The notes: generated by a model from the letters alone, not told the origin. A DNA stretch of 64,000 bases from Candidatus Onthousia faecavium (GCA_018711135.1 DVIS01000026.1:3172-67171); one strand, 5' to 3'; counted from the first letter of the stretch, positions 3,281 through 27,784 are shown. Numbers and translations are program-made.

Positions 3281-3706
3281 ATGACATTTTTTTGGTTAGG
3301 ATTATTTATTATCTTAGCTATATTTGAACTTATGACAATCAATTTAGTCTCCATTTGGTTTGCTCTTGGGGCTTTAATTACTACTTTTGTATCGCTTATT
3401 ACTGATAATATGATGATTCAATTAGCAGTTTTTACTATTAGTTCTATTCTTTTATTAATTCTAACAAGAAACTTAGCTAAAAAATTAAAAAAGACTAAAG
3501 TTGTACCAACTAACTTAGATCAGGTTATTGGTAAGATTGGAATTGTTACAGAAGATATAGAACAAGATGGAATTGGTGAGGTTAAAGTTCTAGGAAAGAA
3601 ATGGAGTGCATATAGTGATAGAGAAATAAAAAAGGATGAAAAAGTTAAGATTATTTCTATTGAGGGAGTTAAACTTAAAGTAGAAAAAATAAAGGAGAGT
3701 GACTAA
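3281..3706 (+). CDS. NfeD-family membrane protein
   Basis: AAGGAGG 7 nt upstream of ATG 3281 (the track starts at GTG 3275). N-terminal TM helices plus a C-terminal OB-like segment GEVKVLGKKWSAYSD; paired with an SPFH gene as in NfeD-SPFH operons. Confidence 0.8.
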   Translation: MTFFWLGLFIILAIFELMTINLVSIWFALGALITTFVSLITDNMMIQLAVFTISSILLLILTRNLAKKLKKTKVVPTNLDQVIGKIGIVTEDIEQDGIGEVKVLGKKWSAYSDREIKKDEKVKIISIEGVKLKVEKIKESD

Positions 3707-13196: not shown

Positions 13197-13850
13197 CTAA
13201 TCAATTTTAGTCCTTTTTTCACGAGCAATACCTACAATTTTTATAGGTAAATTAATAACATCTTCTTTAGAAAACATTCTTATATCATAAGCCATATTAT
13301 ATGCTTGTAATACTATACCTTGTTCATTAATCAACACTTTTTTAAAAGTCGATTCAGTACCATTTATCATGATAGCACAATCTTTGCCATTATAAAGTGC
13401 AGTATCATTAGTCTGTTCGAATATTACTATATCCTCGTCTTGATATTTAGGGAACATAGAATCACCACTTATTTTTAATCCATAAAATTTTTTTCCACCT
13501 TTGGTCCATTCTTTAGGAATATCAATATAATCAATTATATCGGGCTGGCTTTCAATTGGTATTCCAGCTTTTATTGAACCATAAACAGGTATTTTTACTA
13601 TGTTAGAGTTTATATCTATAACACTTGCATTATCGAATGAAAGAGGCGGAAAAAAATCATTAATGGATATATTAAAATAATCAGCTAGTTTAAATAAAAC
13701 AATATTATTTGACTCCAATTTTCCAGACTCGTATCTTGAAATGGTTTGTGATGTTGTTCCTAAATAATCAGCTAGTTCTTGTTGCGTTACATTCTTTCGT
13801 GTCCTATAATATTTAATTTTGTTACCAATATATTTTGAAATTTCCTCCAT
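13197..13850 (-). CDS. CI/LexA-like phage repressor (XRE HTH plus S24 peptidase domain)
   Basis: HTH RKNVTQQELADYLGTTSQTISRYESGK; C-terminal GDSMFPKYQDEDIVIFE and FKKV match the S24 Ser/Lys autocleavage fold. Confidence 0.9.
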   Translation of the reverse strand: MEEISKYIGNKIKYYRTRKNVTQQELADYLGTTSQTISRYESGKLESNNIVLFKLADYFNISINDFFPPLSFDNASVIDINSNIVKIPVYGSIKAGIPIESQPDIIDYIDIPKEWTKGGKKFYGLKISGDSMFPKYQDEDIVIFEQTNDTALYNGKDCAIMINGTESTFKKVLINEQGIVLQAYNMAYDIRMFSKEDVINLPIKIVGIAREKRTKID

Positions 13851-25640: not shown

Positions 25641-26783
25641 ATGAAGAGAAAAAAGCTAATTCTTTATCATACTAATCCATTACAATTTGGAGGAGTAGAT
25701 ACATTTGATTATAATTTCTGTAAAAAAATGCGAGATAAATATAATATTTTATTTCTGTATAAAGATGGAAATTTAGATACTATAAGAAGACTGCAAAAGT
25801 TAAATATTGAGGTTGAAAAATATAATAGTAATAAAAAATATGTTTGTGATATTTGTCTCTTAGCAAGTGCTTGGGGAGGTTATCCTGAAACTGTTATTGC
25901 AAAAACTGGTAGATATATACAGATGATTCATGCTGACTATATAAGAGCAAAAGAAACAGGCTTTGTTTATGAAAAATGGTCTAAAACGACTGAATACGTA
26001 GCAGTAGGAAAACACGTTACATCAGTTTTTAAAAAACTTTATCCTAAAGAAAAGGTAACAACTATTTATAATATATTAGATGATAGACAAGAAACACATC
26101 ATGTATTAAAACTAATATCAGCGACTAGAGTCTCAAAAGAAAAAGGCTACGATAGAATGTTAAAATTAGCTCAAGCTCTAAAAGAACATAACATAAAATT
26201 CAGATGGATTATCTTTACCGATTTAGAACTTTATCAGCAAAAACCTTTTGATTTGGAAGAAATAGTTTATATGAAACCATCACATGATATATTTGATTAT
26301 ATAGTTGAAGCCGATTACGGAGTGCAACTATCAGATACAGAAGGTTACTGTTATTTTGTTAATGAGTGCTTACAATATGGTACACCAGTTATTTCTACTA
26401 ATTATCCGAGTAGTTATGAATCTATTGAGGACGGTGTTAATGGTTATTTATTAGATATGGATTTATCTAATTTAGATATAGATAAAATTGTAAATAGTAT
26501 TCCTAATAGATTTAATTATATTGAAAAAGGTAATACTACTGATTGGACTAAGTTATTCAATAAGAGAGTATATATACCTAAAATAAAATATGAGATTATA
26601 GCTTTAAAAGATTATATTGATAAAAGGCCAGAACTTATAATTGATGATGCATTTGAACATAATGATGCAGGAAATGCTATAATAAGAAAAAATAATATTT
26701 ATTATTTATATGACAAAGAAAGAGCTAAAGAATTGTTAGATACAGGATATGTAAAAATAGAAAAGATTAAGGAGGGTAAATGA
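25641..26783 (+). CDS. GT-B fold glycosyltransferase (group 1 / GT4-like)
   Basis: 380 aa. ISATRVSKEKGYDRMLKLA, then SDTEGYCYFVNECLQYGTPVISTNYPSSYESIEDGVNGYL, matches the C-terminal nucleotide-sugar binding half of group-1 glycosyltransferases. Confidence 0.75.
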   Translation: MKRKKLILYHTNPLQFGGVDTFDYNFCKKMRDKYNILFLYKDGNLDTIRRLQKLNIEVEKYNSNKKYVCDICLLASAWGGYPETVIAKTGRYIQMIHADYIRAKETGFVYEKWSKTTEYVAVGKHVTSVFKKLYPKEKVTTIYNILDDRQETHHVLKLISATRVSKEKGYDRMLKLAQALKEHNIKFRWIIFTDLELYQQKPFDLEEIVYMKPSHDIFDYIVEADYGVQLSDTEGYCYFVNECLQYGTPVISTNYPSSYESIEDGVNGYLLDMDLSNLDIDKIVNSIPNRFNYIEKGNTTDWTKLFNKRVYIPKIKYEIIALKDYIDKRPELIIDDAFEHNDAGNAIIRKNNIYYLYDKERAKELLDTGYVKIEKIKEGK

Positions 26784-27223
26784 AATATAGTGTTATAAGG
26801 AAATTAAAAAATGATCAAACATTATATGAAAAAACTTACAAACTTTTAAATGAAAGGATACAACTAAAAATAGAAGAAACTCTGGGATTACATGGTTTTA
26901 CATTCGATGAGGTTAAAGTTCAACATGAAAAACATCCAGATAAATACACAACAACTTTTGCTGAACTTGAAGAACTTGATAAAAGCAGAACTTTAGTAAA
27001 AAAAGAACGGGATAAAATAAATGATTATTTCAATGAAATAGATAGAGATATAGAAGCTATGTCTGAAATGGAAAAGAAAGTCTTTAAGGCAAAATATTTA
27101 TATGGTCTATCTCATGCTGATATTGCTGCTAAACTTGATTGTTCTGAAAAAACTATTCAAAGAATTATAAAAGAAATAAATGATGATAAAACAGTTGATG
27201 AAGAAATTAAAGAAAATTCATAA
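26780..27223 (+). CDS. late-gene transcriptional activator (sigma-70 region-4-like HTH; RinA/ArpU-type by position)
   Basis: The C-terminus EKKVFKAKYLYGLSHADIAAKLDCSEKTIQRIIKE is a region-4 type HTH. It is the last gene before the packaging module. Confidence 0.65.
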   Translation: MKYSVIRKLKNDQTLYEKTYKLLNERIQLKIEETLGLHGFTFDEVKVQHEKHPDKYTTTFAELEELDKSRTLVKKERDKINDYFNEIDRDIEAMSEMEKKVFKAKYLYGLSHADIAAKLDCSEKTIQRIIKEINDDKTVDEEIKENS

Positions 27224-27242
27224 ATGTCCAGACAATGTCCAG
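27223..27242 (+). repeat. direct repeat AATGTCCAG x2 with 11-bp register
   Basis: Copies at 27223-27231 and 27234-27242, immediately after the activator stop codon. Confidence 0.6.
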
Positions 27243-27301
27243 TAATATATGCTATAGTGCAGTTGGATGATTAGCTAATAAACTAATCTATTCCACGTAA
27301 A

Positions 27302-27330
27302 GGAATATAGAAATATATTCTTTTATTTAT
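27302..27330 (+). terminator. weak AT-rich terminator after the activator gene
   Basis: GGAATATA-GAAA-TATATTCT hairpin 27302-27321 followed by a T-rich run. Confidence 0.4.
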
Positions 27331-27332
27331 TA

Positions 27333-27555
27333 TAATAATAGTTTTAAAACGTGGGTTTGCCAGGGACAATGACAATGCAAACATCTAGCCCTAGTGCACG
27401 CCTGATGAGGATGCTGACTACATCCGAAACATACTAGGAGATGAGAGTAATTAACTCATTGAGTTTTATGAATGTCAACTAGCGTGTAGCGTGGAGTCTT
27501 CCGACTAGGGGAATAACTGAAGACCTAGATGTCCCATGTTTTAAGACTATTATTA
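27333..27555 (+). ncRNA. rod-like structured RNA element enclosing the hammerhead
   Basis: 23 contiguous pairs 27333-55/27533-55, where the only two departures from Watson-Crick are G.U (27351.27537, 27343.27545). There is also an 8-bp helix 27381-88/27525-32 and a hairpin 27356-60/27377-81. Confidence 0.65.
27389..27510 (+). ncRNA. hammerhead self-cleaving ribozyme, stem I open (type I topology)
   Basis: CUGAUGA 27402-27408; stem II GGAUG/CAUCC 27409-13/27421-25 with a G10.1-C11.1 closing pair; GAA 27426-28. Stem III ACAUACUAG/CUAGCGUGU 27429-37/27479-87 starts with A15.1-U16.1. Cleavage triplet GUA, cut after 27488. Stem I is 27397-401/27489-93 plus 27389-95/27504-10. Confidence 0.8.
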
Positions 27556-27574
27556 AAGTGAGGAGAGAATCAAT

Positions 27575-27784
27575 ATGAAAGTAATTGCTATTATAAAATT
27601 TAATGATTTAGAGTCTAATAAGATTAGAGAAGTAAATGATGTATTTGATGTTTCCAAAGAAAGAGCTAAAGTTCTTCTTGAAAAAAAATATGTAAAAGAA
27701 GTAGTAGAGACTGCCACATTAGATAATGATGTAGAGAAAGCTACTATTAAATCTACTAAAGTTAAAAAGAATGCAAAGAAATAA
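27575..27784 (+). CDS. hypothetical protein, first ORF of the late operon
   Basis: GAGGAG RBS; 69 aa. Confidence 0.5.
   Translation: MKVIAIIKFNDLESNKIREVNDVFDVSKERAKVLLEKKYVKEVVETATLDNDVEKATIKSTKVKKNAKK

Follow-up and report, generated by a model that had tools for sequence, protein, structure and literature searches.

Stems formed from flanking sequence are cut by RNase III in the rRNA leader-trailer helices, the B. subtilis scRNA precursor and the intergenic hairpins of phage T7. Small ribozymes are known in several circular permutations, among them hammerhead types I-III and the P1, P3 and P5 forms of twister, and target-site duplication is a feature of the hammerhead-bearing retrozymes. 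Retrozymes are eukaryotic elements of 600-1000 nt whose terminal direct repeats contain hammerheads; they propagate by way of circular RNA and reverse transcription (PMC4918200). Type I hammerheads (RF00163; PMC3088659) occur in phage intergenic regions, a location common to many bacterial hammerheads. GOLLD and ROOL (PMC5737381) and the theta ribozymes (PMC10879173) are structured phage-borne RNAs from diverse hosts that often lie on the same strand beside or between tRNA genes.

Here, we analyse a hammerhead-bearing RNA encoded at 27333-27555 on the plus strand of a 64,000-nt stretch of DNA from Candidatus Onthousia faecavium (hereafter the window), and find that it is one member of a conserved and widespread family of structured phage RNAs. 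The window copy shares with type I hammerheads the catalytic core, the three stems, the NUH triplet, ends that leave via stem I and the intergenic location. It differs in that stem I extends into a double-pseudoknot domain of ~100 nt that exists also without the ribozyme, and in a stem III of 59 nt. As in the RNase III precursors, a helix of ~20 bp and variable sequence, formed from the flanks, encloses a structured RNA, with the cleavage here predicted from sequence; in enterobacterial phages one conserved stem bears different tips, whereas half of the family has no such stem. The phage setting, host range and tRNA neighbourhood recall GOLLD, ROOL and theta ribozymes, but the RNA is much smaller than the first two and, unlike the HDV-like theta ribozymes, has another fold and an optional ribozyme. 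Like retrozymes, the element is non-coding, carries a hammerhead and is variably present, but it has a single hammerhead and no repeats and resides in a DNA phage. Finally, two permutations are found in the family, with the opening at P1 (the window copy) or beside stem I; in contrast to the permuted small ribozymes, scaffold and ribozyme are here permuted as a whole rather than the ribozyme alone.

A folded RNA in a late operon leader

The element lies between the gene for a 147-aa protein with a sigma-70 region 4 domain, which ends at 27223, and a 69-aa ORF followed by genes for an HNH endonuclease, the terminase large subunit, a portal protein and a prohead protease. From these flanking genes we place it in the leader of the late operon, which encodes packaging and structural functions. 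The element is richer in GC (42.6%) than its flanks (27-29%), and it contains no ORF longer than 41 codons. The features discussed below are collected in Table 1.

Table 1. Features of the element and its surroundings, in window coordinates
Feature	Position	Strand	Remarks
Conserved late leader	27223..27330	+	AATGTCCAG x2; extended -10-like TGcTATAGT 27250-58; hairpin 27269-88; AU-rich terminator-like hairpin 27302-20, then U run
Closing stem, 5' arm	27333..27353	+	Family P1 'GUG' plus variable extension; kept up to 27351 in phages without the element
CGUGGG, nearly invariant 5' motif	27350..27355	+	Family alignment
Presence/absence segment, 209 nt	27352..27560	+	Boundary ambiguous by 1 nt
Hairpin b, GUUUGC 27355-60 / GCAAAC 27377-82	27355..27382	+	Loop CAGGGACAAUGACAAU: pseudoknot 5' strand plus family UGACA loop motif
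Pseudoknot c, 5' strand GGGACA	27363..27368	+	Pairs with UGUCCC 27530-35
Helix d, 5' strand (family ACAUCUNG)	27381..27388	+	Pairs with 27525-32; family core 5 bp, 27384-88/27525-29
Helix e (distal stem I), 5' strand CCCUAG	27389..27394	+	Pairs with CUAGGG 27505-10
Hammerhead stem I, 5' strand CACGC	27397..27401	+	Pairs with GCGUG 27489-93
Hammerhead core C3-A9, CUGAUGA	27402..27408	+	Sequence and motif scan
Hammerhead stem II GGAUG/CAUCC (27409-13/21-25), loop CUGACUA	27409..27425	+	Loop conserved in window-type subgroup
Hammerhead core G12 A13 A14	27426..27428	+	Sequence and motif scan
Long stem III, ACAU.ACUAG 27429-37 / CUAG.GUGU 27479-87	27429..27487	+	Interior with conserved GAGUAAUUAAC and UUAUGAAUGUCAAC
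Cleavage triplet GUA 27486-88; predicted scissile bond between A27488 and G27489	27486..27489	+	Register and relatives' alignment
Family signature block GGAGUCUUCCGACUAGGGGAAUAACUG, 27 nt	27493..27519	+	Fits the pattern matching at least 120 viral loci
Pseudoknot helix g, GUCUUC 27496-501 / GAAGAC 27519-24	27496..27524	+	Crosses helix e
Helix d, 3' strand CUAGAUGU	27525..27532	+	Inverted repeat, relatives
Pseudoknot c, 3' strand UGUCCC	27530..27535	+	Overlaps 8-bp helix and inner end of 23-bp helix
Closing stem, 3' arm	27535..27555	+	Inside the 209-nt presence/absence segment
RBS GAGGAG 27560-65 and ATG 27575 of first late ORF (69 aa)	27560..27577	+	RBS 4 nt past 3' arm

The original prediction described a rod closed by a 23-bp helix, and this helix is real. 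The two 23-nt arms, 27333-27355 and 27533-27555, are inverted repeats with 91% complementarity, and their two mismatches, G27351.U27537 and U27343.G27545, can form wobble pairs only in plus-strand RNA, as the prediction had claimed and the sequence confirms. None of 300 dinucleotide-preserving shuffles of 27200-27700 (501 nt) yielded a 23-nt inverted repeat with two or fewer mismatches, the longest reaching 19 nt. The minimum free energy (MFE) fold of the plus strand of 27333-27555 includes the entire helix (-71.2 kcal/mol, z = -5.6); that of the minus strand is weaker (-62.1 kcal/mol, z = -4.8). We calculated -28.1 kcal/mol for the closing stem, which comprises 21-23 bp including the two wobble pairs. 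The inverted repeat stands far above chance and is best read as an RNA helix.

Both inner elements of the predicted rod, a hairpin (27356-60/27377-81) and an 8-bp helix (27381-88/27525-32), were recovered by the inverted-repeat search and by the MFE fold. They are thus present, but a conserved pseudoknot, GGGACA/UGUCCC, competes with three base pairs each of the 8-bp and the 23-bp helix. On the side of the closing stem these are its inner two to three pairs (GGG 27353-55 / CCC 27533-35), and on the other side the three pairs that the 8-bp helix adds to the 5-bp helix d of the family. The competition in the window is read by analogy with the family architecture. In the predicted fold the two halves left by ribozyme cleavage stay joined by more than 40 bp, in line with the earlier expectation.

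The type I hammerhead core is complete, with three helices and an NUH triplet directly 5' of stem I, and the equivalent of the A15.1-U16.1 pair is formed by A27429 and U27487. The combination of CUGAUGA, stem II GGAUG/CAUCC and GAAA occurs once in the 64 kb, where 0.04 occurrences are expected by chance. A hammerhead-compatible fold lies only 2.8 kcal/mol above the MFE when the helices are enforced and the pseudoknots left uncounted. Cleavage should occur after A27488 (GUA, followed by G), as this is the sole register in which stem I adjoins the core and the alignment to relatives is free of gaps. A GUC at 27474-76 (followed by A) was rejected as cleavage site because the sequence next to it has no pairing partner in the bases 5' of the core, which leaves the core without an adjoining stem I. 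A tandem UAGCGUG repeat (x2, 27480-93) supplies first the 3' strand of stem III and then that of stem I. The Rfam hammerhead models gave no score on the window copy even at E <= 10, probably because of the long stem III. No hammerhead model attained its gathering threshold on a tested copy; on one family member (L011), Hammerhead_1 (RF00163) reached 28.7 bits (E = 5.5e-4) against a threshold of 34.

A scaffold shared by phages of many hosts

A scan with stem II of the window returned a single viral contig of high GC content, L003. The two loci have CGUGGGUU, AACAUCU, GGAGU and GGGGAAUAACUG in common beyond the bases used for the search, and they align without gaps from the cleavage site onward. 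The exact 17-base pattern GGAGT-N8-12-GGGGAATAACTG matched at least 120 loci in viral contigs, and their alignment defines an invariant block, GGAGU-N10-GGGGAAUAACUG. The family core spans ~100 nt and runs from CGUGGG through hairpin b, ACAUCUNG, helix e and an optional insert to GGAGU and helix g; there follow the 3' strand of helix e, GAAUAACU, the 3' strands of g and d, a tail pairing with the loop of hairpin b, and CAC. Helices e and g form an H-type pseudoknot around the invariant block. The hammerhead is inserted into the loop between helix e and GGAGU, and its stem I therefore continues through e, d, c and P1 into the closing stem.

The window copy carries the signature block with its fixed spacing, CGUGGG, b, ACAUCUNG, d, e and g in order, and the loop-tail pseudoknot. 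The nesting of hairpin, inner helix and distal stem I set out in the original prediction is the consensus layout of the family. Each position of helices e and g is paired in 96-100% of 78 copies, with three to five pair types at variable positions. At least six contiguous complementary nucleotides join the hairpin b loop and the tail in 97.5% of copies, compared with 21% of cross-member controls; this pseudoknot has 6 bp in the window and a family median of 8 bp.

The scaffold can be recognised apart from the ribozyme. In an alignment of 12 insert-free copies, 95.7% of positions assigned to helices are paired and 10 pairs are changed on both sides, a level of pairing equalled by none of 500 shuffles and by no slid control. 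A covariance model (R1) built from these 12 hammerhead-less copies only, with the window excluded, found nothing in the 64 kb but the window element, as two segments flanking the ribozyme (27350-27405, E = 2e-4; 27442-27539, E = 5e-6).

Rfam 15 at gathering thresholds matched only tRNAs on the window and 12 family loci, and at E <= 10 gave only chance matches, none to an aptamer model, on the window element and one hammerhead-less copy. With the window region as query, blastn returned no match among 50,697 phage records, and the covariance model found nothing in phage PaP3, the source of a hammerhead assayed by Perreault et al. We found no description of the scaffold in the searchable literature; it may have been described elsewhere, under a name that neither Rfam 15 nor these papers contain. 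As far as these two sources show, the window copy is a new member of an unnamed family built around a known ribozyme, the type I hammerhead.

The ribozyme is an optional part of the RNA. The 82 distinct unpermuted copies fall into three groups: an intact type I hammerhead core is seen in 62, a degenerate or unrelated insert in 7, and the other 13 lack any insert. The cleavage triplets of the intact copies are all NUH (GUC in 33, GUA in 23, other NUH in 6). All scaffold helices and the invariant block are retained in the 13 insert-free and 7 degenerate-insert copies, and since the scaffold persists without the ribozyme we infer that it, and not the hammerhead, is the functional part. E. coli prophages, for example that of strain CFSAN061763, contain circularly permuted copies: a loop closes P1, and the opening of the RNA lies beside hammerhead stem I.

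Outside CGUG...CAC, 45 of 81 copies have an ungapped closing stem of 12-33 bp (median 17 bp), and the stem sequences are unrelated, differing at every locus. The argument from strand asymmetry, originally made from two positions, holds over these 45 stems, in which transition mismatches are G.U in 53 cases and A.C in 19 (p = 8e-5). The 23-bp helix of the window is the closing stem of a folded RNA of ~200 nt that bears a hammerhead, and it is maintained by pairing rather than by sequence. The absence of a closing stem showed no significant correlation with a flanking tRNA (stems in 4 of 10 copies with a tRNA and 41 of 71 without, p = 0.33), and as about half of the family lacks a stem, the idea of an excision stem is not general.

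The family is found in cultured phages of Enterobacter, Mycobacterium, Arthrobacter and Microcystis, where it is always unannotated. A T7-like Enterobacter phage and lambdoid prophages of E. coli carry near-identical elements (94-99%); in the prophages a family copy lies between the Q antiterminator and holin genes. Of 5,426 complete E. coli genomes, 370 gave a match to a 351-nt query that includes the element. In this species the two arms move together with the element. The enterobacterial stem also surrounds different tips in two phages, IME11 and phiKDA1, and in strains K-12 and p11B its tip is short and possibly decayed. About a third of copies have a tRNA gene on the same strand within 400 nt, one copy exactly fills the spacer between two tRNAs, and neighbouring tRNAs are always on the element's strand. 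HNH and terminase genes lie downstream at several loci; clustering of the neighbouring proteins revealed no consistent partner beyond these occasional genes. Terminator-like hairpins are only about threefold enriched on either side of copies (13-14% versus 4%).

Related phages with and without the element

We identified seven relatives of the window phage, all from uncultured Bacilli genomes: five by a scan with the conserved leader and two through their proteins. Counting the window, the element is present in three of the eight phages (the window, L131 and L132) and missing from five (L001, L002, L133, L134 and L135). The original prediction proposed comparing related phages for presence or absence of the whole 223-bp unit. 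Five of the eight indeed have no unit, but what comes and goes is a segment of 209 nt rather than the 223-nt rod, and the 5' arm stays behind: the empty site reads ...AGTTTTAAAACG joined directly to AGGAGG.... Neither a target-site duplication nor slippage repeats were found at the 209-nt junctions, which show only 1 nt of homology.

Comparison of the three filled phages revealed that 97.9% of pairs hold and that eight pairs are changed on both sides. Two of the eight are in the closing stem, where A27338-U27550 and A27349-U27539 are each G-C in L132; one is in hammerhead stem I, where the 1.1-2.1 pair G27489-C27401 is A-U in L131; two each are in stem II and helix e, and one is in hairpin b. 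In addition, the wobble U27343.G27545 is C-G in L131. The covariation sought in the closing helix is thus present, and two compensatory A-U to G-C changes together with one U.G to C-G change speak for the selection on an RNA helix that the prediction had proposed. The L132 closing stem also contains one C.A mismatch. The stem II covariation is seen in L132; in L131 two stem II pairs are broken, for which reason the ribozyme may be decaying in that lineage.

By flank identity the filled phages do not form a group, and a tight cluster of empty phages is nested among filled lineages; the element and its flanks have diverged to a similar extent. Given this nesting, loss by deletion appears at least as likely as gain to explain the pattern. 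The empty phage L134 shares the 5'-arm variant of L132 (G at the position of 27338), and L132 has the matching C. Because the five relatives without the element retain the leader and the RBS, these alignments mark it as an accessory cassette, dispensable for late gene expression.

Possible roles of the RNA

Our preferred reading, to which we assign a probability of about 0.6, is that the element is a phage structured RNA with an optional hammerhead and closing stem, which yields a nicked and processed accessory RNA. The whole stem would be transcribed from the conserved upstream promoter, and the domain would fold as a unit insulated by the stem from the AU-rich mRNA. The hammerhead would then cut between A27488 and G27489, leaving a 2',3'-cyclic phosphate and a 5'-OH, and the late message would begin with a nicked RNA in two pieces, joined through stem I, helices d and e, the pseudoknot and the closing stem. 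The stem of ~20 bp would be a likely site for a double-strand-specific RNase such as RNase III, freeing a discrete stable RNA; its geometry, nearly continuous dsRNA of ~20 bp or more formed from the flanks, fits that of an RNase III-type substrate. Copies between tRNA genes would be released by tRNA-processing enzymes. The scaffold, and not the hammerhead, would carry the main function. Self-cleavage, the fold, RNase III cutting and a discrete RNA in cells are all predicted here from sequence.

The outcome of cleavage may also be different. With more than 40 bp joining them, the cleaved pieces might simply religate. A 5'-OH end is also able to recruit RNase J1 in Bacilli, as with glmS, and cleavage could for this reason destabilise the late mRNA instead of protecting it.

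More tentatively, and at somewhat less than even odds, we propose that the scaffold represents an undescribed, phage-specific and cross-phylum class of non-coding RNA, with a double-pseudoknot core of ~100 nt, two circular permutations and an optional hammerhead. Such an RNA would have a biochemical function of its own, for example in binding a universally conserved host component or in catalysis, and the hammerhead and stem would serve only to mature it.

We consider it unlikely that the element is instead a hammerhead acting purely in cis, which would process the mRNA and set the stability or translation of the late message, with the scaffold as a tertiary stabiliser of stem I and no separate functional RNA. 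Natural hammerheads make contacts between stem I and loop II 4-5 bp from the core, and the GGAGU bulge lies at just this position, 4-5 bp from the core. The placement in an operon leader 4 nt from the RBS and the intact core in most copies are further points for such a role, which has been proposed for prophage hammerheads that flank genes and may process long phage transcripts (PMC3088659). However, the ribozyme-free and degenerate copies keep the complete scaffold and invariant block, many copies lie between tRNA genes or before terminators rather than upstream of ORFs, and the cut halves remain paired, so that cleavage alone cannot separate transcripts.

An allosteric ribozyme responsive to a ligand or factor, in which the double-pseudoknot scaffold is an aptamer that gates cleavage and hence late expression, seems quite improbable. 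Ligand-linked ribozymes have precedents in glmS and in the pairing of a c-di-GMP-II aptamer with a group I intron, the hammerhead is fused directly to a scaffold helix, and both the cross-phylum conservation and the H-type pseudoknot with its A-rich crossing strand resemble riboswitch aptamers. Yet the copies in tRNA arrays and those without a ribozyme have no obvious expression platform, no gene class is consistently associated, and the Rfam aptamer models are silent on the element.

The original prediction had raised a mobile, retrozyme-like insertion, but every testable defining feature speaks against it: the 64 kb contain one hammerhead motif, the junctions show no direct repeats or duplication, and the unit is 209 nt long. 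A transposon with terminal inverted repeats or a MITE was likewise rejected, as the arms are unrelated between loci, there is no duplication and the empty site keeps one arm. A broader version, in which an RNA-mediated or target-pairing element inserts where its 3' end pairs with 18-19 nt of the native 5' flank, like a retrozyme or an intron guide, we regard as very unlikely. It would account for the 5' arm that empty sites keep through 27351 while the 3' arm belongs to the 209-nt unit, for the arm variant that L134 shares with L132, and for near-identical copies in unrelated phage types. Against it stand junctions with 1 nt of homology and no target-site duplication, a single hammerhead with neither long direct repeats nor a reverse transcriptase nearby, and the E. 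coli copies, in which the two arms either move along with the element or remain in place around a decayed tip. The nested empty cluster is explained at least equally well by deletion, and the element is about as diverged as its flanks.

Even less credible is a folding switch on the first late ORF, in which transcripts from a late promoter in the 5' arm would carry a truncated stem and read-through transcripts the full one. The hexamer TATAAT at 27331-36, with TAGAAA 17 nt upstream, does give a promoter score of 10 out of 12, and the original prediction built its model of two RNA species on it. But the hexamer is not conserved: relatives have TCTAAT, TACAAT or TGTAAT, so that the key A at its second position varies, and promoter-like matches in the region (6) do not exceed those expected from shuffles (7.1). 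Five relatives, moreover, have the same operon without the element. Comparison of the relatives instead revealed an invariant promoter-like block containing two copies of AATGTCCAG and TGcTATAGT (27250-58), ~80 nt upstream of TATAAT, which leaves the model of two RNA species without a basis; the terminator-like AU-rich hairpin of the leader is weak. Late transcripts most likely start at this upstream block and so contain the whole stem.

We give almost no credence to a DNA-level inverted repeat (transposon ends, a cruciform, a protein-binding or packaging site): the locus does lie just upstream of HNH and terminase genes, a frequent cos location, but the mismatches are strand-asymmetric, no recombinase could recognise arms that are unrelated between copies, the interior covaries as RNA including its pseudoknots, and the element is always on the strand of neighbouring tRNAs.

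Taken as a whole, the earlier interpretation is thus partly supported. If the scaffold is undescribed, its presence at no fewer than 120 loci and in 370 of 5,426 E. coli genomes would place it among the more abundant unannotated phage RNAs. Nucleotides that are invariant in phages of Proteobacteria, Actinobacteria, Cyanobacteria and Firmicutes imply a partner common to these hosts or a self-contained activity. The family offers a natural case of a self-cleaving ribozyme as an optional module of a larger RNA, which bears on the role of bacterial and phage hammerheads. For annotation, it accounts for a class of long intergenic regions that seem empty, located in the tRNA arrays and late leaders of phages. 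Even the prophages of E. coli, including strain K-12, contain copies or remnants, and the family is directly testable in E. coli prophages.

The late leader and the end of the early region

Upstream of the element, the late leader carries a direct repeat of AATGTCCAG (two copies), an extended −10-like TGcTATAGT, a hairpin (GAUUAG/CUAAUC), and, just ahead of a U run, a second, AU-rich hairpin that looks like a terminator; all of these are almost unchanged among the eight related phages. This segment, lying 3' of the sigma-like gene (a 147-aa protein with a sigma-70 region 4 domain), is probably the late promoter or activator site combined with a leader terminator. The early region closes with this regulator, and the gene immediately before it encodes a group 1 glycosyltransferase that may be a moron.

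Coordinates of the leader, the element interior and related structures
Feature	Locus	Positions	Remark
Glycosyltransferase gene	window	25641-26783	
Late leader upstream of element	window	27223-27330	nearly invariant across eight related phages
Stem III interior	window	27445-27479	
Full family copy	L086	8477-8624	
Partial family copy	L086	about 13360-13470	
Stem with short tip	L136 (E. coli K-12)	340-417	lambdoid late leader, antiterminator-holin interval
Stem with short tip	L137	251-328	lambdoid late leader, antiterminator-holin interval
Stem with differing tip	L125 (phage IME11)	1610-1700	
Stem with differing tip	L128 (phage phiKDA1)		
Apparently complementary segments	L126	2950-3120 vs 3300-3420	far outside element
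Stem-closed structures	L138 (Mycobacterium phage phiGD24-3)	563-716; 1024-1120	other spacers, same tRNA array

Stem III interior and a partial duplicate

Within the long hammerhead stem III, GAGUAAUUAAC and UUAUGAAUGUCAAC are conserved in the hammerhead subgroup found in the window and also at loci L009, L040, L111, L119, L131, and L132. The AGUA/GAA combination in this stem is similar to motifs of the loop E or sarcin-ricin type. A separate locus, L086, contains a full family copy and, 4.8 kb away, a partial copy consisting of only the 3' ~110 nt, terminator included; the arrangement is like that of attL/attR sites on either side of an element that had inserted itself into the RNA gene. The stem-closed structures in the phiGD24-3 tRNA array are not members of the scaffold family.

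The enterobacterial stem around other tips

In the K-12 locus and L137, the stem CACAACAGGTAAGAGCATTG/CAGTGCTCTTTCCGTTGTG encloses a 37-nt tip in which CGTGAAGAGTC looks like a hammerhead-core remnant, and a boxA-like UGCUCUUUCC lies inside the 3' arm. The enterobacterial stem also surrounds differing short tips in one N4-like phage (IME11) and one T7-like phage (phiKDA1); CGTGGGTT and GGAGTCCC, both present in the IME11 tip, look like family fragments.

In some E. coli prophages and IME11, apparent complementarity of GATGATGTTGTTCTGATGGCGGCG with CGTCATCGCCGCC..AGCAACAGCAC extends to sequences far outside the element. It suggests an even larger structured RNA within the ~1-kb gap between the antiterminator gene Q and holin.
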